A DNA stretch of 64,000 nt, taken from Octopus vulgaris (lineage: Eukaryota). The stretch is taken from assembly GCA_951406725.2 (NCBI GenBank), contig OX597819.1, positions 39,618,001 to 39,682,000 on the forward strand. The letters are read 5' to 3'. The position numbers and the translations under genes were made by a program. The notes under the pieces were generated by a model that worked only from the letters and a program-made list of their open reading frames with translations, was not told where the DNA came from and did no database searches. This document shows positions 7,097 through 64,000 of the stretch, piece by piece (position 1 is the first letter of the stretch; every line of letters starts with the position of its first letter).

Positions 7097-7506
7097 TTCT
7101 TTTATTCTTTTACTTATTTCAGTCATTTTACTACAGCCATGCTGGAGCACCGCCTTTTAGTCGAACAAATCGACCCTAAGACTTATTCTTTATAAGCTTA
7201 GTACTTATTCTATCGATCTCTTTTGCCGAACCGCTATTTTACGGGGATAAAAACACACCAGCATCGGTTGTCAAGCGATGCTGGAGGGGGGGAGACAAAC
7301 ACAGACACAAAGACAAACACACATAAATGTATATATACATATGCGACGGGCTTCTTTCAGTTTCCGTCTACTAAATCTACTCACAAGGTTTTGGTCGGCC
7401 TGAGGCTATAGTAGAAGACACTTGCTTAAGGTGCCACGCAGTGGAACTAAACCCAGAAGCACGTGGTTGGGAAGCAAGCTTCTTACCACACAGCTACGGC
7501 TGCGCC
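7097..7506 (-). mobile_element. SINE family A, full length
   Basis: Reverse complement of the element at 2411-2800. Confidence 0.9.
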
Positions 7507-11190: not shown

Positions 11191-11610
11191 CTCTTTTACT
11201 CTATTACTTTTACTTGTTTCAGTCATTTGACTGCGGCCATGCTGGAGCACCGCCTTTAGTCGAGCAACTCGACCCCGGGACTTATTCTTTTGTAAGCCCA
11301 GTACTTATTCTATCGGTCTCTTTTGCCGAACCGCTAAGTAACGGGGACAGAAACACACCAGCATCGGTTGTCAAGCAATGCTAGGGGGACAAACACAAAC
11401 ACACAAACACACACACGCATATATATATATATACATATACATATATACGACGGGCTTCTTTCAGTTTCCGTCTACCAAATCCACTCACAAGGCTTTGGTC
11501 GGCCCGAGGTTATAGTACAAGACACTTGCCCAAGGTGCCACGCAGTGGGACTGAACCCGGAACCATGTGGTTGGTAAACAAGCTACTTACCACACAGCCA
11601 CTCCTGCGCC
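11191..11610 (-). mobile_element. SINE family A, full length, low divergence
   Basis: Reverse complement of the family A consensus, with tail repeat (TTTTAC/CT). Confidence 0.92.
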
Positions 11611-13804: not shown

Positions 13805-14416
13805 CTTTTCTACTCTAGGCACAAGGCCCGAAGTTTTTGGGGTGGGGGAGGCCGATCGATTAGATCGACCCGAGTACGCAACTGCTATTTAATTTATCGA
13901 CCCCGAAAGGATGAAAAGTAAAGTCGACCTCGGGGGAATTTGAACTCAGAATGTAGACAGACGAAATACTGCTAAGCATTCCGCTCGGCGTGCTAATGTT
14001 TCTTATTTCTTTATTGCCCACAAGGGGCTAAACATAGAGGGGACAAACAAGGACGGACAAAGGGTTTAAGTCGATTACATCGACCCCAGTGCGTAACTGG
14101 TACTTAATTTATCGAACCCGAAAAGATAAAAGGCAAAGTCGACTTCGACGGAATTTGAACTCAGAGCGTAACAGTAGACGAAATACCTATTTCTTTACTA
14201 CCCACAAGGGGCTAAAAACAGAAGGAACAAACAAGGACAGACAAACGAATTAAGTCGATTATATCGATCCCAGTGCGTAACTTGTACTTATTTAATTGAC
14301 ACCGAAACGATGAAAGGCAAAGTCGATCTCGGCGGAATTTGAACTCAGAACGTAAAAACACGAAATACGGCTACGCATTTCGCCCGGCGTGCTATCGTTT
14401 CTGCCAGCTCGCCGCC
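13805..14416 (-). mobile_element. Head-to-tail array of three SINE family B units
   Basis: Three repeats of CGACCCCGAAAGGATGAAAGGCAAAGTCGACCTCGGCGGAATTTGAACTCAGAACG, with one complete head ...CAGCTCGCCGCC at 14416. Confidence 0.9.
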
Positions 14417-14538
14417 TTGATGAATAACAATATAAACATATACATGAACGTAAATTTCATATTTTATGAACTGTGTGATCAAGTGCACCCTATATACATA
14501 TACATATATACATACATAAATATATATATATATGTATG

Positions 14539-19517: not shown

Positions 19518-19822
19518 AAGGTAGTAACACGTGCTCACAACCCTTTTGTTGTCTTCAGAAAATATATATTACATAAATATAAACCTTTAACACGCATGCG
19601 TTACTTAGGGATTCAGTGAATTTTTTGCTAACTCATTTTATACAATTTCTTAAATCATTCCAATATTCTGTGCCTCGCAGTGTCCGTCTTCTGCTATCTT
19701 CTTCCCAACTAGTTACTTCATGTGCAAGGCTTTCTCCTCTTCTATAGATACACCCCGTCTTTTATCATTACACTAATTTTATTTAATCAATAGATGTTAC
19801 ATTAACTATTTCTCTCATTTTA

Positions 19823-20054
19823 AGGCGGTGAGCTGGCAGAAACGTTAGCACGCCGGGCGAAATGCATAGCCGTATTTCGCCTGCCTTTACGTTCTGAGTT
19901 CAAATTTCGCCGAGGTCGACTTTGCCTTTCATCCTTTCGGGGTCGATAAATTAAGTACCAGTTACGCACTGAGGTCGATGTAATCGACTTAATACCTATG
20001 TCTGTCCTTGTTTGTCCCATCTGTGTTTAGCCCCATGTGGGTAGTAAAGAAATA
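19823..20054 (+). mobile_element. SINE family B, full length, 16-bp TSD
   Basis: Head GGCGGTGAGCTGGCAGAA, B-box-like GAGTTCAAATT and Meta-like core GCCTTTCATCCTTTCGGGGTCGATAAA. TSD TATTTCTCTCATTTTA at 19807-19822 and 20055-20070. Confidence 0.92.
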
Positions 20055-20399
20055 TATTTCTCTCATTTTATCCTTTTTTACATGATCTTGCTACATAATT
20101 CTTAATATTTTATGAAAGATTTTTATTGAAAAGTAACGAATTTAGCATCAGATTTAGTAATACTGGGCCAGAATCGATGTTCATATAGTAATATTGATTT
20201 ACAAAGGTGGTTTAAATTTTTATCTTCCTGGTGAGTGCTCCTTCTGAGTTTTTAATTCTTTTTCCAAACTTAAAGCCAAGTAAGCCATCATTAAACGTAG
20301 TCGTAGAAATTTTGGATACGTCCATGAAAAACAGAACTCTCGGTTAGACAGAACCTGCTTATTAAAGATAAAGAAAGAAAGCATAGATAGAATGAACTC

Positions 20400-21100
20400 T
20401 TTGACGCAATATTTAACGTTATTTCTCCAGCTGAGTGGTGGCTGGACTTTGAAACACGGGAAATCATACATGCAGAAAGTCACAAAGGTTATAAAACAAC
20501 TAAAGAATTATAAAGCACCAGTATTGATGGAATCGAATTCGGAAAGGTAAAAACTGATGAACTCGCAACATCAATTATAATAACAAGACCGTTTACTTAC
20601 ATCTAGAGATTGGTTGAAATACCTGTTGGATGATAGAGAGGAATTATATAATTATAATACCTAAGAGGGTAGATTTGTGTTAATATGGGAACTGGAAATG
20701 TAACACTCTATCTATTTCTTTACTACCCACAAGGGGCTAAACACAGAGAGGACAAACAAGGACAGACAAACGGATTAAGTCGATTACATCGACCCCAGTG
20801 CGTAACTGGTATTTATTTAATTGACCCCGAAAGGATTAAAAGCAAAGTCGACCTCGGCGGAATTTGAACTCAGAACGTAGCGGCAGACGAAATACCGCTA
20901 AGCATTTCGCCCAGCATGCTAACGATTCTGCCAGCTCGCCACCTTAAAATGTAACACTCTATCATCTATTGTTATGATGCTGTTCTGCAAAGTAATGGTA
21001 TGTAGAATCGAGTGCATTGTTGACATGATTCTAAAGGGGTATTAAAAATGTGGCAGAGGTGAGAGAGAATATTACCAAATCTTTATAAGTGATATCATGC
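20400..21100 (+). pseudogene. Highly decayed RTE-type RT fragment, interrupted by a SINE
   Basis: KAP.IDGI-like codons at ~20512 and GDL...NW..VTL-like codons at ~20668, with many frameshifts. Confidence 0.4.
20713..20946 (-). mobile_element. SINE family B, full length, 17-bp TSD
   Basis: TSD AAATGTAACACTCTATC at 20696-20712 and 20947-20963. Confidence 0.92.
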
Positions 21101-21794: not shown

Positions 21795-21848
<54 letters not shown>

Positions 21849-21930
21849 GGTCCCGGGTTGAGTCGGGGTTAACCACAGTAAATAAGGTACTCAATACATA
21901 GCAGAGTAAATTAATTTATTATATAGAAGG

Positions 21931-21981
21931 AGCTTCTACAGGACTAGAACTGTTTCATTCAAAAGAAATCATCAGGAAGCT
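21931..21981 (-). ncRNA. Type I hammerhead ribozyme (family A)
   Basis: Exact reverse complement of 22400-22450. Confidence 0.75.
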
Positions 21982-22399
21982 AGTAGACAAGAGTTGTTTT
22001 GGCATTTATACATTTAGGCAGGTTTAAATGGGTGGTGGTGGGGGACTTTTTTGGGGGTAGGCATGGCGCAAAACTATCATTATTAGGGGAGTGGTCAAAG
22101 GAATCGGTGGTAAAGTAGATAAAAGAATAAATAAAAGAATAAAAGAATAAATAGAAAAATGGAGTTTTAGGTAAGTAAGGAGTCTCTCACTTGTACATCT
22201 ACATATATATATATATAAATTGATCAAAACAAAAACACGATGCCAAGGATCCAGCGGCACACATGTTTCGGGTCCCCATATAATGACCACTCCCCTAATA
22301 ATGATAGTTTTGCGCCATGCCTACCCCCAAAAAAGTCCCTCACCACCACCCATTTAAACCTGCCTAAATGTATAAATGCCAAAACAACTCTTGTCTACT

Positions 22400-22450
22400 A
22401 GCTTCCTGATGATTTCTTTTGAATGAAACAGTTCTAGTCCTGTAGAAGCT
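22400..22450 (+). ncRNA. Type I hammerhead ribozyme (family A), canonical core
   Basis: AGCTTC-CTGATGA-TTTC-tttt-GAAT-GAA-ACAG-ttctagtc-CTGT-A-GAAGCT: stem I 6 bp, stem III 4 bp, GUA cleavage triplet (after 22444), weak stem II with a U-U closing pair. Confidence 0.75.
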
Positions 22451-22460
22451 CCTTCTATAT

Positions 22461-22513
<53 letters not shown>

Positions 22514-22676
22514 TACATATACATATACATATATACACATACATACACATACATATATACATATATGTACATATATATAAATACATATATATACGGACAT
22601 ATATATATATACATATGTACATATACATACATATGCACAGATATATGTATATATATATATATATGTGTATATATAT

Positions 22677-22707
<31 letters not shown>

Positions 22708-22708
<1 letters not shown>

Positions 22709-23358
22709 CTAAGTAATTAAGGGTTTAGCAACGATTTGCCTCACCAAACACCGAATTTAGAAATAGCAGTCAAAGGGTTATAGCTATTCTTTCTACTAAA
22801 AGGGAGATCTCAGTAAAACCACAGCACTTGAAAGACAAACACAGACAGGCAAGAGAGAAAGAAATGACGGCAATCTATCATACAATTTTAAGTCACCTAC
22901 GGACGTACGTTTCGAAATTAAGTTTTAGGAAAGCATAAGAATTAGATAATTATGTCTTACCCAACTTCTTTTCTCATCAGCGTAGGACACTACAATTATG
23001 AATAATTGTATATTAAATTTCGAGGTACTAGAAGACATCATCTCAACTCAGTATCAGAGCGAGCTAAAGCCGTTACCAGTATCACCAAATTCAAAGTGTG
23101 AATGAAAGTTTGTGTCACCAACCCCCTCCCACCAGCGTGCAGCCAAGACAAGATGTTGTGGTCATTTACTGGGATGAAATATGGTTATCAGTAATAATAT
23201 AGGGTGAAATTAATTAATTTGGAATAATCATTACTTTCACCAAGTAGATTTCGGCATGTAAAAGCCTCATTCGAGGAAAGTTTAAGTAATACTAAGTAAT
23301 TAAGGGTCAAAGGGTTATAGCTATTCTTTCTACTAAAATTAATTTCACCCTATATTAT

Positions 23359-23362
<4 letters not shown>
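22708..23362 (-). mobile_element. HHR family B element: ~583-nt unit with terminal redundancy and inverted tip
   Basis: ACTAAGTAATTAAGGGT at 22708 and 23291; GTCAAAGGGTTATAGCTATTCTTTCTACTAAAA at ~22769 and ~23306; 23190-23215 inverted at 23337-23362; (TA)n flanks. Confidence 0.8.
22896..22986 (-). ncRNA. Type I hammerhead ribozyme (family B), canonical core, long stem II
   Basis: Minus strand: CCTACG-CTGATGA-GAAA...(long hairpin)...TTTC-GAA-ACGTACGT-C-CGTAGG. Stem I is 6 bp, stem III is palindromic, and the triplet is GUC. Confidence 0.8.
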
Positions 23363-23426
<64 letters not shown>

Positions 23427-26837: not shown

Positions 26838-27314
26838 TTATGGTTGTCCCCTCGTTATCGAGTATGGCCATTGCACAAAGCTTAACTGTTACTGGTACTG
26901 TGATCGAATGTGACTTTTTAGCCCAGCTAAAGATCTACAATGTCTTGTACAAAATTGGCAGCTAAAACCTTTACCGGTAATAGCCGGCTGTAGTTGTAAC
27001 TGGGCTTCATGTACCTTTGCATGTCGTTTAAGTCCTCCCACCGAATTACACTCTCTTCCACATGCCCGACGGATTTGATTAGTATGGTGTGTTACACCAC
27101 CACCAGTGGCCAGGTTGTCACTCATCTGTCTCGCTTTATGACGACGAAGATAGCTCTTGAGTCCAGCTTTACTGAGGCAGGGTCTTGCACAGACACTGCA
27201 TGTCAGCATCATAGGAAGACCCTACCAATCTGGAAGTGTAACAGCGATGCCCTTCCTCACATCCCTCCTTACTTTCTCATGTGCAACTCGAGATTTCTCA
27301 AAAGTGGTTGTCTC
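26838..27314 (-). pseudogene. RTE-type LINE 3' end with three C2H2-like fingers and (TATG)n tail
   Basis: TTFEKSRVAHEKVRR...CSVCARPCLSKAGLKSYLRRH...CGRECNSVGGLKRHAKVH...CQFCTRHCRSLAGLKSHIRS. The 3' terminus TGCAATGGCCATACTCGATAACGAGGG is shared with 46655-46700. Confidence 0.75.
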
Positions 27315-28198: not shown

Positions 28199-28201
<3 letters not shown>

Positions 28202-28353
28202 AAATAATATGTGACAATTACTCGGTAGCCAAGATAAAACTCTGAGTTTCGGATGCCGAGGTGGAAATCCACAACACCATCTCTTCGAAGAGATAAATTT
28301 CCTCTATTTACATAATATTGAGGTCTCTTTCTTTTGTTATCTTACCGTTTTTA

Positions 28354-34554: not shown

Positions 34555-35752
34555 ATAACTTAGAATAACTTAGAAAGGTTTTGGCCAGTATTGGCCCAGG
34601 CCATGTCTAACTTAATAGCACCACCTGGCGAAGTCTTTCAATTCAGGATTTGGGTACCAAGGCCCATTCGAGCAGAGAGTTATTGTTTGCGGAGACATAT
34701 CCGGGTGTGGGTGGTTTGTCCGGGACTGTTTGAAGGAATTTGTCCAAAGACTTCTTGAATTTTGTGTGGTCAGTTTCTTTTTTGACGTGTCCTGGTGTAA
34801 TGTTGAAGAGAGCGGGTCCAATTGAGGTGAAATAGTTGTGCCGTATTGTCGTTATGTGGTGCGATTTAGATTTTTGTTGTGGACAGATGGCACGTGGTCC
34901 AAGCCTTGGATGTATTTTGAAGGTGATGCCAACATCATTCGGACAGTGCTGATGGAATATTTTCCACATCATACAGATAATGTAGCGTTCACGGCGTCGT
35001 TGGAGTGAATACAGTTTCAGCTTCTCTAGTCTACCCCAGTAGTCAAGGTCTGACATGCCATCTAACTTTTTTGTGATTGACCTTTGGGGAGCTTCAATTC
35101 TCATAATATTTTGTTTTGTGTAGGGAGACCACAGTGGACAGCAGTATTCAAGGTGGGGTCGGGCAAAAGTGGAGAAGAGAAGGATAATAGTGTGGGAATC
35201 TCTCGACTGGAAGGTTCTGAGAATCCAGGAACACATTCTGCGGGCCATGTCAACTTTGCTGCTTATATGTGTAGCCCAGCTTATGTTGTTGTCCACTGTT
35301 ACTCCCAAGTTTCTGATGTTGTTGGATGCCATGAGAATTTCTCCAGAAGGAAGGGAGTATGGGAGTTTCAGAGCGTTCTCCCTTCCAAAGTGGATCAGTT
35401 CGAATTTGTCTTCGTTTAGCAACATGTTATTCTTTTCCGCCCATTGGACAACAGCCAGTAGGTCTGACTGAAGGCTTATTCGGTCATCCACGCCGTTGAT
35501 GACCTTCTGGAGCTTGGAATCATCAGCAAAGGTTCTGATGTTACTGTGTTTGATGGTGTCAGTAATATCATTTATGTAGATGATGAAGAGAAGTGGGCCC
35601 AACACAGTGCCTTGTGGGACACCACTGCTGACTTTGGCTGGGCTGGATTTGACTCCTTCGACTACAACATGTTGGGTTCTGTTAGACAGGAAGCACTTGA
35701 TCCACTGCAGCAGCTTTCCAGTGACACCAATATTGGACAGCTTTCTCAGAAG
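34555..35752 (-). mobile_element. 5'-truncated CR1/Jockey-group LINE; reverse transcriptase C-terminal ORF (34643-35605) open
   Basis: SGVPQGTVLGPLLFIIYINDI...FADD RT motifs, LEYCCPLWSP and LYSLQRRRER. A short 3' UTR ends in (TTCTAAGTTA)2 next to (TA)n. Confidence 0.92.
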
Positions 35753-36589
35753 TACTGGTCCGAATTTTGACTAAAGAAAACAAGTGATCAAATGTTATAT
35801 TTAATTGGAATTTAATCGTCAATGTACTTTCTCTGATTATCTATGACTTCCTTCCATCTATTTACAAGCTTTTTAATCCCATCAATGTAAAACTCTTTTG
35901 GTTTCAAAACGAAGGACTCTGAAATCTCAGTTTCGATCTCCTCCTGGCTTGCGAAAGTTATGTCCCCCAAATGATTCAGTAAACTACGAAACAAATGGTA
36001 GTCTGAAGGAGCAAGGTCGGGAGAATAAAGTGGATGAAGAATTTTTTTCGCAACCAAGCTTCGATCTTCTGTGATGTGATATTTGCAGTGTGGGGTCGCG
36101 CATTGTCCTGATGAAACATAACTCCTTTTCGATTCACTAAAGTGGGTCTTTTTTTCTTCAAAGCTTGGTTCAAACGCTCAAATTGCTGACAGTAGACTTG
36201 AGCATTGATTGCTGCATTAGGTGGTAACAATTCAAAGTGAATTACTCCTTCACAATCCGACCAAAAAGAGAGAAATCTTTTCTATGAAGCTCCCTTCTCG
36301 GTTGTGGTTGAGCCTTTTCCCTTTTACCAAGCCACTGTTTACGACGTTTAACATTTCGATAGAAGATCCATTTTTCTTGATCAGTCAAAAGTTTATAGAA
36401 AAAGGGTGAAATGAGTTCGCGAGAAGGAGAGAAGAGCAGATGTCAACTCGGGATTTGCGGTTGCTTTCAGACAATTCCTGAGGCACCCATTTTCCACGTT
36501 TAGGAACCTTTCCAAGTTGTTGAAGATGACGATGAACAGTTGCATGGTTTGAGCTAAGCTTTATTGCCAATTCTTCATCTTATGACCTG

Positions 36590-38969: not shown

Positions 38970-40190
38970 CGGGGTGTCCCAAAAATATGTATACACACTT
39001 TAACAACTGATAACTCAGCTGATGCTTTTCTTTCCAGATTAAATCCATTGGAATTAATGGTGGCAGTCAGACTAAGCTTTGAACAAAGGAGATTCATTCT
39101 AAGTGTGAAAACGCAATTGAAGTGCAAAGACAGTTAAGAAAGGAGTTTCAAACAGATCCACCAACGCGACTTACCATCACTTGAATTAGAGATAAGTTTG
39201 AAGCCGATGGAACTGTTCAGAATGTCCACGAGAAGTATTCCGGAAGACCAAAAACATCAACAACCCCCACAAGAAGGAATCACCAGAGTCCAAGAAAATC
39301 TGTGCGGCAAGCGAGTCGTGAGGTAGGTATTTCAAAATCGTCTGTTCAACGCATTTTGAAGCGTTGTCAACGGAAAAGTTGCGTTCCAAGATTAGTCCAT
39401 GTTATTAATGATGATAATCCAGACTGATGAGTGCGTACTGTGAGTGGTACTTGGCACGATGTGTAGAAGATGCACACTTTCTAACAAAGATTGTGTGGAG
39501 TAATGAGGCCACATTCAAATTAAATGGTTCAATTGACCTCCACAATTACACCTAATGGGGACCTGAGAATCCGTATGTTATGGTGGAACAACATGTTAAT
39601 TTACCAGGAATTACAGTGTGGTGTGGTTTATCATCAAGAGCATTAAATGGACCATTCTTTTTTTATGCTACCGTGTCTGGTTCTGTTTACTTGAACTTTC
39701 TGCAACAGTCTGTCATGCCAAGCATTAGAGAAGATGAGAAGTTTTATTTTCAGCAAGATGGGGCACTCCCACGCTACCATTGTGGTGTGAGATCCTTCCT
39801 TGATGAAATCTTGCCAAACAGGTGAATTGGACGTTGAATATCCTCCGCGTTCACCAGATCTCACACCACTAGACTGTTTTTTTTTATGGGGATACCTAAC
39901 AGATAAAGTCTACGCTATGAAACCTGCAACAGTCACTGATTTGAGAGCAGCCATTTGAGAGAATGCATGCAAATACCAAACGAATTTTTTCGTGATGTTT
40001 GCAATTCCATTGCTTCACATTGTCAGCAGTGCCTGGACTAGAACGGACGTCTGTTTGAAAACAGGCATTGACAAAACTATAAAATAACGTCTGTAGATTA
40101 TACTAAATTTAAAAATTGAAATTTATTTTAATAAACACCTACTTCAAAAATTATTTAAAGTGTGTATACATTTTGGTGGGGGACACCCTA
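38970..40190 (+). mobile_element. Full-length decayed Tc1/mariner-superfamily transposon (~1.2 kb)
   Basis: TIRs GGGGTGTCCCAAAAATATGTATACACACTTTA / TAAAGTGTGTATACATTTTGGTGGGGGACACCC and broken transposase motifs WSNEATF, FQQDGA, SPDLTPLD..LWGYL. Confidence 0.9.
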
Positions 40191-40199
40191 TATATATGT

Positions 40200-40469
40200 A
40201 TCTGTAAAATAATATGTGACAATTATTCAAAAGCCAAGATAAAACTCTGAGTTTCGGATGCCGAGGTAGAAATCCACAACGCCATCTCTTCGGTTATCTG
40301 GCCAGAAAACCAAAAAGATGGTGTTGTGGATTTCCACCTCGGCATCCGAAACTCAGAGTTTTATCTTGGCTACCGAATAATTGTCACAAATTATTTTACA
40401 GATAAATTCCCTCTATTTACATAATATTGAGGTCTCTTTCTTTCTTTTGTTATCTTACCGTTTTTACCA

Positions 40470-40471: not shown

Positions 40472-40521
<50 letters not shown>

Positions 40522-40532
40522 TATATAGAAGG

Positions 40533-40583
40533 AGCTTCTACAGGACTAGAACTGTTTCATTCAAGAGAAATCTTCAGGAAGCT
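40533..40583 (-). ncRNA. Type I hammerhead ribozyme (family A)
   Basis: Reverse complement of 41714-41764. Confidence 0.75.
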
Positions 40584-41148
40584 AGTTAACAAGAATTGTA
40601 TTGGCATTTATACATTTAGGCAGGTTTAAAGGGGTGGTGGTGGGGGACTTTTTGGGGGTAGGCATAGCGCAAAATATCATACTTGGGGGAGTGGTCAAGG
40701 AGTCAGTGGTAAATTAGATAAAAGAATAAATAAAAAAATAAAAAAATATATATAAAAAAGAATAGAGTTTTAGGTAAATAAGGAGATTCTCACTTATACC
40801 TATACACATATGTATACATATATACACACACATACATACATATATACATACACACATACATACACACACACACATATACATATATATACACATACACTTA
40901 CATATACATATCTACACATACACATATATATATACATACACTCACTCACATGCATACACGTATACACACATGTATATATACACACACGACCACACATACA
41001 TATACACACAGAAAAATATATATACATACACACACATACACATACACGCATACACACACATCTCCACATACACACATGCACACACAGCACACTAGTCCCT
41101 ATATACACATATATACACATACACACATATATATACATACACATACAT

Positions 41149-41188
<40 letters not shown>

Positions 41189-41713
41189 GTGTACCTATAC
41201 ATACCTACACATACACACATATATATACATACAAATACATACAAATATATACATACAAATACATACATTTCCAACCTTGTGTATATATACATGTGTGTAT
41301 ACGTGTATGCATGTGAGTGAGTGTATGTATATATATATGTGTATGTGTAGATATGTATATGTAAGTGTATGTGTATATATATGTATATGTGTGTGTGTGT
41401 ATGTATGTGTGTATGTATATATGTATGTATGTGTGTGTATATATGTATACATATGTGTATAGGTATAAGTGAGAATCTCCTTATTTACCTAAAACTCTAT
41501 TCTTTTTTATATATATATTTTTTTTTTTATTTATTCTTTTATCTAATTTACCACTGACTCCTTGACCACTCCCCCAAGTATGATATTTTGCGCTATGCCT
41601 ACCCCCAAAAAGTCCCCCGATATTTTGCGCTATGCCTACCCCCAAAAAGTCCCCCACCACCACCCCTTTAAACCTGCCTAAATGTATAAATGCCAATACA
41701 ATTCTTGTTAACT

Positions 41714-41764
41714 AGCTTCCTGAAGATTTCTCTTGAATGAAACAGTTCTAGTCCTGTAGAAGCT
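41714..41764 (+). ncRNA. Type I hammerhead ribozyme (family A)
   Basis: AGCTTC-CTGAAGA-TTTC-tctt-GAAT-GAA-ACAG-ttctagtc-CTGT-A-GAAGCT. It differs from the 22400 copy only at N7 and in loop II. Confidence 0.75.
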
Positions 41765-41847
41765 CCTTCTATATAATAAATTAATTTTACTCTGCTATGT
41801 ATTGAGTACCTTATTTACTGTGGTTAACCCCGAATCAACCCGGGACC

Positions 41848-41894
<47 letters not shown>

Positions 41895-44510: not shown

Positions 44511-44912
44511 TCCTTTTACTTGTTTCAGTCATTTGACTGCGGCCATGCTGGAGCACCGCCTTTAGTCGAGCAAATCAACCCCGGGACTTATTCTTTTGTA
44601 AGCCCAGTACTTATTCTATCAGTCTCTTTTGCCGAACCGCTAAGTGACGGGGATGTAAACACACCAGCATCGGTTGTCAAGCAATGCTAGGGGAACAAAC
44701 ACAGACACACAAACATATACACACACACTTATATATATATACATATATACGACAGGCTTCTTTCAGTTTCCGTCTACCAAATCCACTCACAAGGCATTGG
44801 TCGGCCCGGGGCTATAGCAGAAGACACTTGCCCAAGATGCCACGCAGTGGGACTGAACCCGGCACCATGTGGTTGGTTAGCAAGCTACTTACCACACAGC
44901 CACTCCTGCGCC
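44511..44912 (-). mobile_element. SINE family A, full length
   Basis: Near-identical to 11191-11610. Confidence 0.92.
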
Positions 44913-55782: not shown

Positions 55783-55868
55783 TTCCGACATATGTTTCGA
55801 AGAAAACATTGATATTATTCCGGTGAGAATAAAATGATGTAAAACAATGCGACCATCTCGTCAGGAAA
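55783..55868 (-). ncRNA. Type I hammerhead ribozyme (family D), canonical core, long stem II
   Basis: Minus strand: TTTC-CTGACGA-GA...(hairpin including TTATTC/GAATAA)...TC-GAA-ACATATGT-C-GGAA. Stem III is palindromic and the triplet is GUC. Confidence 0.6.
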
Positions 55869-58016: not shown

Positions 58017-58908
58017 CTAGGTGAAATAAAAGAGTTCCGGGACTAGTTTTGTAGCGCGCCAAGAGATGGCAGCACAAGGTTACCTGCGCAATGACAGCTA
58101 GCAGTGACCTTCATAAGGCAGTGTGCTGAGTGACATCGCTGCGTTTACTTCAGAAGTTGTGAAGTTTATGTTTTTGAGATCATGTGTATGTTGTAGTCTG
58201 GGGTTTTGTCATTGGCGGGAACAAAGAACCAACATGAAATTTTGCGTTAAACTCTGGAAGTCTGCTACAGAGACATTGAGCATGCTTCAGCAAGCTTACG
58301 GTGATGAGGCAACGGATCGTATGCTATGCTTCGAGTGGCACGGGCGCTTTAAAAACGGAAGAACTTTCCTGGAAGACGACGAGCGATCTGGAAGACCTGC
58401 CACGACCGTCACCCCCGGAAATGTGACATTGTGCATCGAGAATTCGTCTCCCAGGGCTAGACCCTCAATCGAGAGTTCTACTGTAAAGTTTTGAGGGAGA
58501 GCATTCGGTGAAAGTGACCGGATGTGTGGAGCGCGAAGAATTGGATCCTTCATCGTTCTCCTCACTCGTACATTTCTCACCACACCCCCACCACCACCCA
58601 CCTCAAAGGTATCGCTTCTACATCCGCTCTATTCGCTAGATTTAGCACTATCTTTTCCCTAAAATAAAAATGCAGCTGAAAGGTCACCGTTTTAACAGCG
58701 TTGTCGAGATCCAGACAGAATCGCAGAAGGTCCTCGACTCGCTTACGGAAAATAATTTCCAGGCCGAATTACAAACGTGGCAGGAAAGCTGGGACCGATG
58801 TATTACTGCGCAAGGTAACTATTTCGAAGGAGATGGTGTTAAAACTTTGGTAAATAAGTTATTTTTTACTAAACATAACTAGTCCGAGAATCTTTTGATA
58901 CCACCTCG
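58017..58908 (+). mobile_element. Internally deleted mariner element
   Basis: TA-flanked TIRs CTAGGTGAAATAAAAGAGTTCCGGGACTAG / CTAGTCCGAGAATCTTTTGATACCACCTCG and motifs EQRTNMKFCVKL...WHGRFKNGR..LEDDERSGRP, HPLYSLDLA. Confidence 0.9.
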
Positions 58909-60899: not shown

Positions 60900-60930
60900 T
60901 GTATATAAGCTCAAATGGTATTTCTCTATA

Positions 60931-61162
60931 AGGCGGCGAACTGGCAGAAACGTTAGCACGCCGGGCGAAATGCTTTGCCGTATTTCGTCTACCGTTACGT
61001 TCTGAGTTCAAATTCCGCCTAGGTCGACTTTGCCTTTCATCCTTTCGAGGTCGATAAATTAAGTACCAGTTACGCACTGGGGTCGATATAATCGACTTAA
61101 TCCCTTTGTCTGTCCTTGTTTGTCCCCTCTGTGTTTAGCCCCTTGTAGGTAGTAAAGAAATA
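60931..61162 (+). mobile_element. SINE family B, full length, 12-bp TSD
   Basis: TSD GGTATTTCTCTA at 60917-60928 and 61163-61174. Confidence 0.92.
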
Positions 61163-61570
61163 GGTATTTCTCTACAGGTGGGTCCTTTCTTTTGCTGATT
61201 ATTTTCGTCACATGACTGGTAGATCAGTAGGGATTTCCACAACAGGGTAACTTTTTTTTTATATTGTGATTTCATAAAACAACATCGGGCCGCTTGTATT
61301 TTACTTCGATTATTGTTTTTGTGTTTGCTTGTGCATTTATAAATGCCAGTATATAAGCATGCATATATATGTATATTCGCGTGTATGTAATTTGGCAGTG
61401 TATGTTTTTGTATGACTATACGTGCATCTATGCACTTGTTTATCAACACCTGCCTCGTTACGAAGTCGGAAATGATGTTGCCGCTGTTTGTTTCTGGACA
61501 ATTTGGCTATGAAGGTGAGAGGCTTAGCAGTGTTGTGCCAGCTGTTTATTGGACTTGTCTGTATGTATAT

Positions 61571-61630: not shown

Positions 61631-62310
61631 TAGGTCGTCAAGTATTAAATTTGTAGTAAGGTATGTGGTAAACTTTGATAGCTGTTCATTTTGCGCTTTA
61701 TAAAGTATTTATAAATCGTTTTTTACGATTTTTGTTTGGAGATGGAAGTTCGTACAGTCTTGAAATATGAGCTCTTTCTTGGAAATACACCTTTACAGAC
61801 AACTCAGAATACTAATAAGGTATTTCATTCTAATGGTATTACACAACAGGCAGTATCACATTGGTTTACAAAATTTCGTTCTGTTAACTGACTTCACAAA
61901 TGAGCAACGTGGTCGACCAGAAACAAAGGTGGATAACGACGAGCTGAAAGTCACCGTCGTGTCAGATCCACCTCAAAGTGCCCATGAATAATCGTTGTTG
62001 TTTGCTGTTAGCTTGTAAACAATATTGACTCACCTAGTTCAAATCGGTAAAGTGAAAAAGTTGGATAAGTGGGTTCCACATGAACTCAATGAAAATCAGA
62101 AATAGCAACGTTTGGAAGCCTGCATTATGCTACTTTCTCGTCACAAAAATTAATCATCTTTGAATTGAATTGTAACGAAATGAGAAATGGATCCAATACA
62201 ACAACCGTAAACGTTCAGCACAATGGTTAGACAAAGACGAGTCACCAAAACACAGTCGAAGAAGCAAAATTCATCAAACGAAGCTGATGGCCTTGATAAC
62301 GTTGTGTTAA
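61628..62310 (+). pseudogene. Decayed mariner transposase 5' half
   Basis: TATTAGGT terminus and motifs GRPETKVDNDELK, KKLDKWVPHELNENQK. Confidence 0.85.
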
Positions 62311-63488: not shown

Positions 63489-63684
63489 GTGTTTATCCAT
63501 TTCTTTCACCACCTCGCGATTATTCCTTCTTAACGTTTCGTATCACCTATAAAGAATATGAAATCATTAACTGTTGGGTTTCATACGGACGGTAAATGAG
63601 TCTACGGTGAACCAAGTCTCAGCATTCCAGTTGTGTTATTGTCCTGATTCGATAACTTAATGTTATTTATATTGCCGGCTATCA

Positions 63685-64000
63685 AGGAGGCGAGTTTGCG
63701 GAGTCGTGAGCACGCCAGAGAAAATGCCTAACACCATTTCGTCCGTCTTTAGGATTTAAGTTCAAATCCCGCCGAGGTCGACTTTGCCTTTTATACTTCG
63801 AGGTTATTAAAATAAGTGTCAGTTGAGCACTGGCGTCGATGTAATCGGCTTATCACCTCCCCCAAAATTGCTGGCCTTGTGTCAAAATTTGAAAAGAATG
63901 TTACAAGTTATTAGAGTAGCGAGCTAGCAGAATCGCTAGCACGCCGAGCAAAATGCTTAGCGGCGTTTCGTCCGTCTTTGCATTCTAAGTTCAAATTCCT
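63685..64000 (+). mobile_element. Two tandem SINE family B copies (second cut off by the window end)
   Basis: GGCGAG..GC.GA.TCG..AGCACGCC heads at ~63686 and ~63918, and the Meta-like core at 63775-63825. Confidence 0.8.

Follow-up and report, generated by a model that had tools for sequence, protein, structure and literature searches.

The 655-nt insert at positions 22708–23362 of a 64,000-nt stretch of Octopus vulgaris DNA (the whole stretch analysed, hereafter the window) is probably a dispersed 1.1-unit copy from a non-coding family with a 583-nt unit and a high copy number, a non-LTR retrozyme mobilized as a non-autonomous passenger of Penelope-like elements (PLEs). On the one hand, the unit is non-coding, a few hundred bases long and carries a type I hammerhead, and it occurs in multiple copies with head-to-tail junctions in contigs of four runs, as expected of retrozymes. 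On the other hand, the insert combines a partial tandem with an inverted, 5'-truncated copy, has offset ends (by 101 nt, not 30–40) and lies in an AT-rich (TA)n target without a clear target-site duplication. This combination constitutes the published signature of PLE insertions and hence argues for a retrozyme mobilized by PLEs; the arrangement is ordinary for PLE insertions, and no peculiarity of the locus. The class of element is known, and what looks new is its long, length-conserved stem II.

Structure of the insert and its surroundings

The window is AT-rich, dense in microsatellites and filled with repeats, and the insert is sandwiched between two (TA)n tracts (Table 1). The unit is present once in the window, and two repeat blocks, one of 19 nt at 22706 and 23289 (spacing 583) and one of 33 nt at 22769 and 23306, recur at 100% identity. 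The partial tandem comprises 17 and 31 nt of the unit 3' end on either side of a 46-nt deletion (22725–22770) with a 2-nt GT microhomology, and the direct copy overlaps the inverted tip by 2 nt (AA). An earlier note on this DNA had described the unit start as repeating after 583 bp with a deletion of ~45 bp at a GT microhomology; spacing, microhomology and deletion all stand, but the ribozyme lies on the minus strand and the repeated piece therefore belongs to a preceding partial copy, of which it forms the 3' end, and is no unit start. The 26-bp inverted copy reported in the same note is recovered exactly, 23337–23362 being the reverse complement of 23190–23215. The only frame of the unit above the length filter (69 aa) matches no Pfam family, and the ATG within the hammerhead core opens six codons and then meets a stop. 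The unit is predicted to be self-paired (z -2.85; 60 shuffles).

Table 1. Coordinates of the insert, its hammerhead and other features of the window
Feature	Position	Strand	Remarks
Left-flank (TA)n/(CA)n microsatellite, target	22466..22707	.	Target-site duplication not readable in microsatellite
Full non-coding unit, 583 nt	22708..23290	-	Sense taken as ribozyme strand; 19-nt repeat recurs after 583 nt; joints reach back by 581-583 in X4/X5; stops throughout six frames
3' terminus of unit; putative start site 1 of reverse transcription	22708	-	
Stem I extension	22876..23006	-	Predicted only: after 6 bp, 2x2 internal loop, then 3+6+5 bp
Type I hammerhead motif	22896..22986	-	Core intact, stem I of 6 bp; cleavage predicted after C at 22902
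Palindromic stem III ACGUACGU	22903..22910	-	Predicted: 2 bp in monomer, 8 bp between two copies
Long stem II	22914..22973	-	Predicted: 4 bp, 2x2 internal loop, 16 further pairs, 11-nt loop
Source of inverted tip within unit	23190..23215	-	
Outer end of inverted tip, putative start site 2	23190		101 nt downstream of site 1 (cyclic unit)
Partial tandem of unit 3' end	23291..23338	-	22708-22724 fused to 22771-22801; 46 nt lost; GT microhomology
Inverted 5'-truncated copy, 26 nt	23337..23362	+	Exact reverse complement of 23190-23215
Right-flank (TA)n microsatellite, target	23363..23420	.	
Second hammerhead family	21846-22465, 40512-41850		Cores 21975 (-), 22406 (+), 40577 (-), 41720 (+)
LINE-like RT fragment, mariner/Tc1 transposase remnants, C2H2-finger frame	34646-35770, 35815-36442, 58117-58491, 61715-61888, 39185-39424, 26892-27221	-, -, +, +, +, -	
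~400-nt SINE-like repeat	2411-2796, 7112-7506, 11212-11610, 44518-44912 and shorter		8 or more copies, full or partial
~245-nt repeat family, tandem-like copies	13856-14421, 19807-20063, 20709-20960, 60919-61175, 63681-63999		
212-nt near-palindrome	40196-40407		Partial copy at 28199-28287

Outside microsatellites, the window holds 174 stop-to-stop frames of at least 55 aa. Among the 150 of these scanned against Pfam, no GIY-YIG domain is found and the single RVT_1 match lies 11 kb from the insert. An autonomous PLE, with its reverse transcriptase (RT) and GIY-YIG ORF, was therefore rejected, and the adjacent PLE ORF that the earlier note had suggested looking for is not found among these frames. 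The ~400-nt SINE-like repeat of the window looks like an octopus SINE. A second hammerhead family, with a short stem II and a longer stem III than the long-stem-II family, has two insertions in (TA)n, each made of inverted copies and bearing a tail of ~70 nt at a single end; its layout is the same as that of the 22708–23362 insert, and it likewise has no Rfam match. The LINE RT and DNA-transposon remnants of the window, and the fact that tandem units can also come from rolling circle, might point to a family spread by other machinery, be it a rolling circle of the Helitron type or the reverse transcriptase of a LINE. This origin is scarcely credible, however, for an element whose 3' end has no poly(A) or repeat tail (its target-site duplication being unreadable) and whose hammerhead, inverted truncated copy and offset ends follow the PLE pattern (PMC8557442).

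Copies, period and ends of the family

The stretch, or part of it, is contained in 20 of 24 listed runs, which represent four coded organisms and ten studies; none of these runs is recorded as RNA, and they have no bearing on expression. Contigs were aligned to the stretch at 82% likeness in four chosen public runs from two coded organisms (X1, X4, X5, and X12), of which X5 is a DNA run and X4 and X12 have a guessed RNA status. All four yield aligned contigs (2003, 76, 1827, and 240), at identities ranging from 99+ to below 90%. With 76 to 2003 contigs per run, the sequence is not single-copy, and the earlier proposal of a multi-copy family with head-to-tail units and a retro-integration origin is supported. 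Joints going back 583, 582, and 581 nt are found in X4 and X5, loose ends at 23307 run on into the undeleted unit in X1 (16), X4 (2), and X12 (1), and head-to-tail continuation into the undeleted unit start is seen in all four runs; the 583-nt head-to-tail period is therefore a family trait. Since the joint is also present in the DNA run X5, it is no proof of an RNA circle. Among the listed contigs, which are short, none spans two hammerheads and none spans the whole stretch. Searches for exact patterns in collections of viral, metagenome, and prokaryote sequences gave no matches, as expected for animal DNA.

The recurrence of the period bears on whether the locus could instead be simply the end of an autonomous PLE that was truncated at its 5' side, with the 583-nt spacing as a local accident. 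PLE insertions mostly lack their 5' part and retain a single terminal repeat (PMC8557442; bioRxiv 10.64898/2026.07.22.740005), and the loose ends of X4 at 22774 and 22797 (155–164 nt) would be relatives sharing only the 3' end. This explanation is nevertheless very unlikely, for diverged copies from all four runs show the 581–583 period again, the share of contigs continuing into unlike sequence is 0, 0.2, 0, and 0.01 across the four runs (in contigs that are short), and the core ATG opens only its six codons. The same X4 loose ends, with a median length of 164 nt at 22774 and 155 nt at 22797, resemble the unit loosely, and they are candidates for a diverged sister family or for an autonomous partner sharing only its 3' end. 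Summed contig depth steps up at ~23191 in X4 and X5 and down at ~22927 in X1 and X12. In X4, two contigs have an end at 23192, on an AT-rich flank. The reading of the depth steps as a second family end at 23190 and a truncation near the ribozyme was set aside, as contig depth cannot rank parts.

The ends of the insert provide information on its formation. The 78 duplicated nucleotides (19 + 33 + 26) show no mismatch to the unit, and the absence of mismatches in the 74 that do not overlap places their divergence below 4% at 95%; furthermore, a minority allele at 22776/23313 is common to the unit and its duplicated block. Both the identity of the blocks and the shared allele fit one template and one event, and the single integration with template jumps put forward in the earlier note is plausible. 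The 2-nt microhomologies do not add to it, since 18% of random deletions would show one by chance, and the family contains other shortened junctions: a similar one is crossed by a contig from organism B that carries 14 other letters, and a third form, running from 23302 to 22749 with 8 letters between, is present in X1 and X5. These observations leave room for a template that was already deleted, and it is possible, if rather unlikely, that the 46-nt deletion pre-existed in the template or arose after insertion, with only the inverted tip dating from integration. The listed indels, however, read as other breakpoints, which would fit repeated skipping at this point, and the duplicated blocks match the adjoining unit down to its minority allele. 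None of the joints listed for the four runs, whose contigs show presence and not absence, is that of the tip, and bin 23345–23364 is uncovered, with the caveat that the tip letters fit 23190–23215 too.

A hairpin with an A/C-rich loop is predicted on the minus strand at 22758–22795, with the deletion resuming within its loop, and is reminiscent of the AC-rich stem-loop described at the Poseidon RT start (PMC11167929). An ACCCT motif is seen shortly upstream of both putative start sites, 22708 and 23190. Two further candidates were rejected. A hairpin at 22721–22752, in the deleted block, was considered as the cause of skipping, but loses one pair when position 22747 carries the majority allele. 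An intron beside the hammerhead, comparable to that of Drosophila virilis Penelope, was considered on the basis of splice-like motifs at 22896–22827 and upstream of stem I, and no skipping joint is present among those listed.

The hammerhead and its long stem II

The hammerhead (22986–22896, minus strand) has an intact CUGAUGA...GAAA core and a GUC cleavage triplet with C17 at 22902, and it displays the CUGANGA...GAAA...UH core, three helices and open helix I that define type I motifs. A strict descriptor matches once in the window and in none of 200 Markov-simulated windows. A looser descriptor yields two matches, the second of which, at 55864 on the minus strand (59-nt spacer; five-pair stem I including a wobble), is weak and probably due to chance. 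The earlier note had read from the letters a minus-strand motif with a perfect core, a CCUACG/CGUAGG stem I, a self-complementary stem III that could dimerise and a stem II of ~60 nt. All four elements are borne out here, with six Watson-Crick pairs in stem I, a predicted cofold of two copies through 8 bp of stem III, and 60 nt between the core boxes (22973–22914) that form 20 predicted pairs. Rfam returns no hammerhead match at gathering score in the whole window, and none of its 51 matches to E 10 in 21800–23400 belongs to a hammerhead family; the miRNA-model matches among them fall on microsatellite and were discarded as artefacts.

Stem II is predicted to fold into a hairpin of 20 pairs with interruptions (-10.7 kcal/mol and z -2.0), and 47 of 1000 shuffles are equally stable. 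The stem that the earlier note wished to see folded does form in prediction, although its modelled stability appears real but modest. The probability of its closing pairs is ~0.7 in four of five sequence contexts and 0.16 in the fifth, with 50-nt flanks, where that of stem I falls to 0.13. Most likely, stem II keeps a canonical 4-bp helix, followed by a 2x2 internal loop in the place where loop 2 contacts stem I, with the remainder as an appended hairpin. Monomeric stem III has a pairing probability of 0.0 in all five contexts, and the free monomer favours an inactive fold (-19.0 vs. -15.8), the active fold costing ~3 kcal/mol. The cofold of two copies, in contrast, adopts the dimeric hammerhead geometry (-46.2 vs. 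2 x -19.0; with flanks, -53.6 vs. -45.4). Metazoan type I motifs with a 6-bp helix I and a short palindromic helix III work as dimers (PMC4209133), requiring a second copy for cutting (PMC4209133; PMC6155905), and the predicted dimer fold of the 583-nt unit matches this described behaviour. Cleavage of the hammerhead is slightly more likely than not, and it would presumably depend on the dimer.

Four listed contigs bridge the whole of stem II, three of them without gaps and with 1, 16, and 20 other letters, and the fourth with 6 gaps over 334 nt. The length of stem II is thus retained in copies diverged by 13–16%, which indicates that the long stem II is no local insertion. Among the 40 listed variant positions (of 120), none falls within the 31 nt of the core and stems I and III (P 0.10) and eight fall within stem II, where four are unpaired, two keep a pair, and two break one. 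The pair-breaking change at 22916 has a matching partner change at 22971, but on a separate contig end that also carries a U4-to-C change in the core. As unlinked alleles among 40 listed of 120, the stem II variants are compatible with a selected stem but do not amount to covariation.

These observations also bear on the view of the unit as a mobilised or tandemly amplified derivative of a PLE pseudo-LTR, in which the hammerhead would be an inactive or dispensable relic and the 60-nt stem II a neutral insertion that folds. The misfolding of the monomer, the z of only -2.0 and the two of eight stem II alleles that break pairs are in line with such a relic, as are reports that one of nine predicted Xenopus dimers cleaved in vitro and eight failed (bioRxiv 10.64898/2026.07.22.740005), and that the Poseidon hammerhead is protein-assisted, with cleavage dispensable for insertion and ribozyme mutants still inserting (PMC11167929). 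An inactive relic remains improbable, however, in the face of an intact core and stems I and III free of the 40 listed variants of 120 (not significant alone), and of a stem II length kept in three of the four listed bridging contigs at up to 16% divergence.

Relationship to known elements and proposed mobilization

Like metazoan non-LTR retrozymes (PMC7229834; bioRxiv 10.64898/2026.07.22.740005), the family combines a non-coding, low-GC unit and one type I hammerhead with head-to-tail junctions, dispersed monomers, a short palindromic helix III and a predicted self-paired fold, but its 60-nt stem II, with 20 predicted pairs, differs from the ~4 pairs of theirs. The unit is also longer than the ~170–400-nt circles reported for invertebrates (PMC7229834), and the size of the predicted 583-nt circle counts against the retrozyme explanation preferred here. 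Its length nevertheless falls within the 51–972 bp of retrozyme consensus sequences in a preprint that derives retrozymes from PLE pseudo-LTRs and in which solo monomers occur (bioRxiv 10.64898/2026.07.22.740005).

PLE insertions are described as featuring partial tandems, an adjacent inverted 5'-truncated copy, a 30–40-bp tail at one end and a bias towards microsatellites (PMC8557442). With endonuclease-bearing PLEs (Penelope/Poseidon, Neptune, and Naiad) and their pseudo-LTRs (PMC8557442, PMC4209133, PMC11167929), the insert shares the partial tandem, the inverted 5'-truncated copy, the two offset ends, the (TA)n target and a hammerhead located upstream of the 3' end, with the core ATG as in Poseidon. 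Unlike PLEs, the unit has no RT or GIY-YIG ORF, and its ends are offset by 101 nt, as opposed to 30–40. In the minimal hammerheads of PLEs, helix II has 6–8 bp, the core is followed by an additional base and helix III is nearly absent, whereas the hammerhead of the 583-nt unit lacks this base and has 2 bp in helix III. Identity with Naiad was considered and rejected: ten motifs of the unit were not found in the supplement covering Naiad, Chlamys, and Hydra (PMC8557442), and two octopus Naiad 3' ends appear unrelated by eye.

The 20 predicted pairs of stem II compare with 4–8 in the papers used for comparison. Helix II has 4–5 bp in most type I motifs and 6–8 bp in "long" viral ones (PMC13725137), 7–8 bp in schistosome PLE motifs (PMC4209133) and often 2 bp (PMC3088659), while one viroid is credited with an "unusually long" helix II (PMC3705267). 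The hammerhead resembles the type I motifs of chrysoviruses and megabirnaviruses (PMC13725137) and the motif of the Chrysanthemum chlorotic mottle viroid minus strand (PMC3705267) in combining an intact core with a helix II above 4–5 bp. The viral motifs differ, however, in their 6–8 bp and stable helix III (PMC13725137), the account of the viroid gives no helix II length (PMC3705267), and neither virus nor viroid hammerheads are animal repeats. Among the matches listed from a mainly open-access literature, neither an animal repeat with a 60-nt stem II nor this particular family was described.

In the proposed mechanism, head-to-tail copies would be transcribed from the minus strand, and two hammerheads would pair via the palindromic stem III and, following the predicted fold, cut after GUC. 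This would release 583-nt monomers, possibly circularised, an activity known only for other retrozymes; the formation of 583-nt circles is accordingly put forward as a tentative prediction, somewhat more doubtful than cleavage itself. A PLE reverse transcriptase/endonuclease would nick the (TA)n target and start internally at 22708, copying a full round past the uncut cleavage site and 48 nt more while skipping 46 nt, and the other target end would be primed at a second site, 23190, to give the 26-nt inverted tip. The letters of the insert cross an uncut cleavage site, exceed one unit and pass their own start, from which it can be deduced that the template RNA was either circular or a multimer left uncut; a linear monomer produced by cutting would have its end 194 nt away from the start site, which rules it out as template. 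A Poseidon protein has been reported to nick both strands of AT-rich DNA in vitro, with two internal RT starts bounding the tail (PMC11167929). We infer a PLE partner for the 583-nt unit, and such partners are plausible in the octopus host, for which 190 Penelope-like families have been annotated, 31 of them recently active (PMC13282606). The word "ribozyme" is absent from the text of that O. vulgaris repeat paper, and the 583-nt family may sit unnamed in its repeat library (PMC13282606).

At this one locus, a non-coding passenger preserves the two ends of a PLE-type integration, with two candidate RT start sites (22708 and 23190), which lends support, in an invertebrate, to the movement of retrozymes by PLE enzymes, an idea so far tested only weakly. 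Furthermore, standard models fail to see a type I hammerhead with a long stem II, here in a high-copy family, and published counts of animal hammerheads may miss such families; PLE hammerhead descriptors, in turn, use spacers of 7–17 nt (PMC8557442). The giant squid genome has 235 Rfam hammerhead matches (PMC6962438). A more ambitious reading, which we regard as unlikely though worth stating, is that the family is shared by related species, with stem II as a conserved 60-nt protein-binding or tertiary module, an active dimer-gated ribozyme and 583-nt circles; the internal loop of stem II would then replace loop 2, a proposal held with equal reserve. Were the conserved-module reading true, Rfam and short-spacer descriptors would miss a whole architectural class and animal hammerheads would be under-counted. 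A natural stem II insert of this size would show how far the hammerhead fold tolerates, or uses, added domains.
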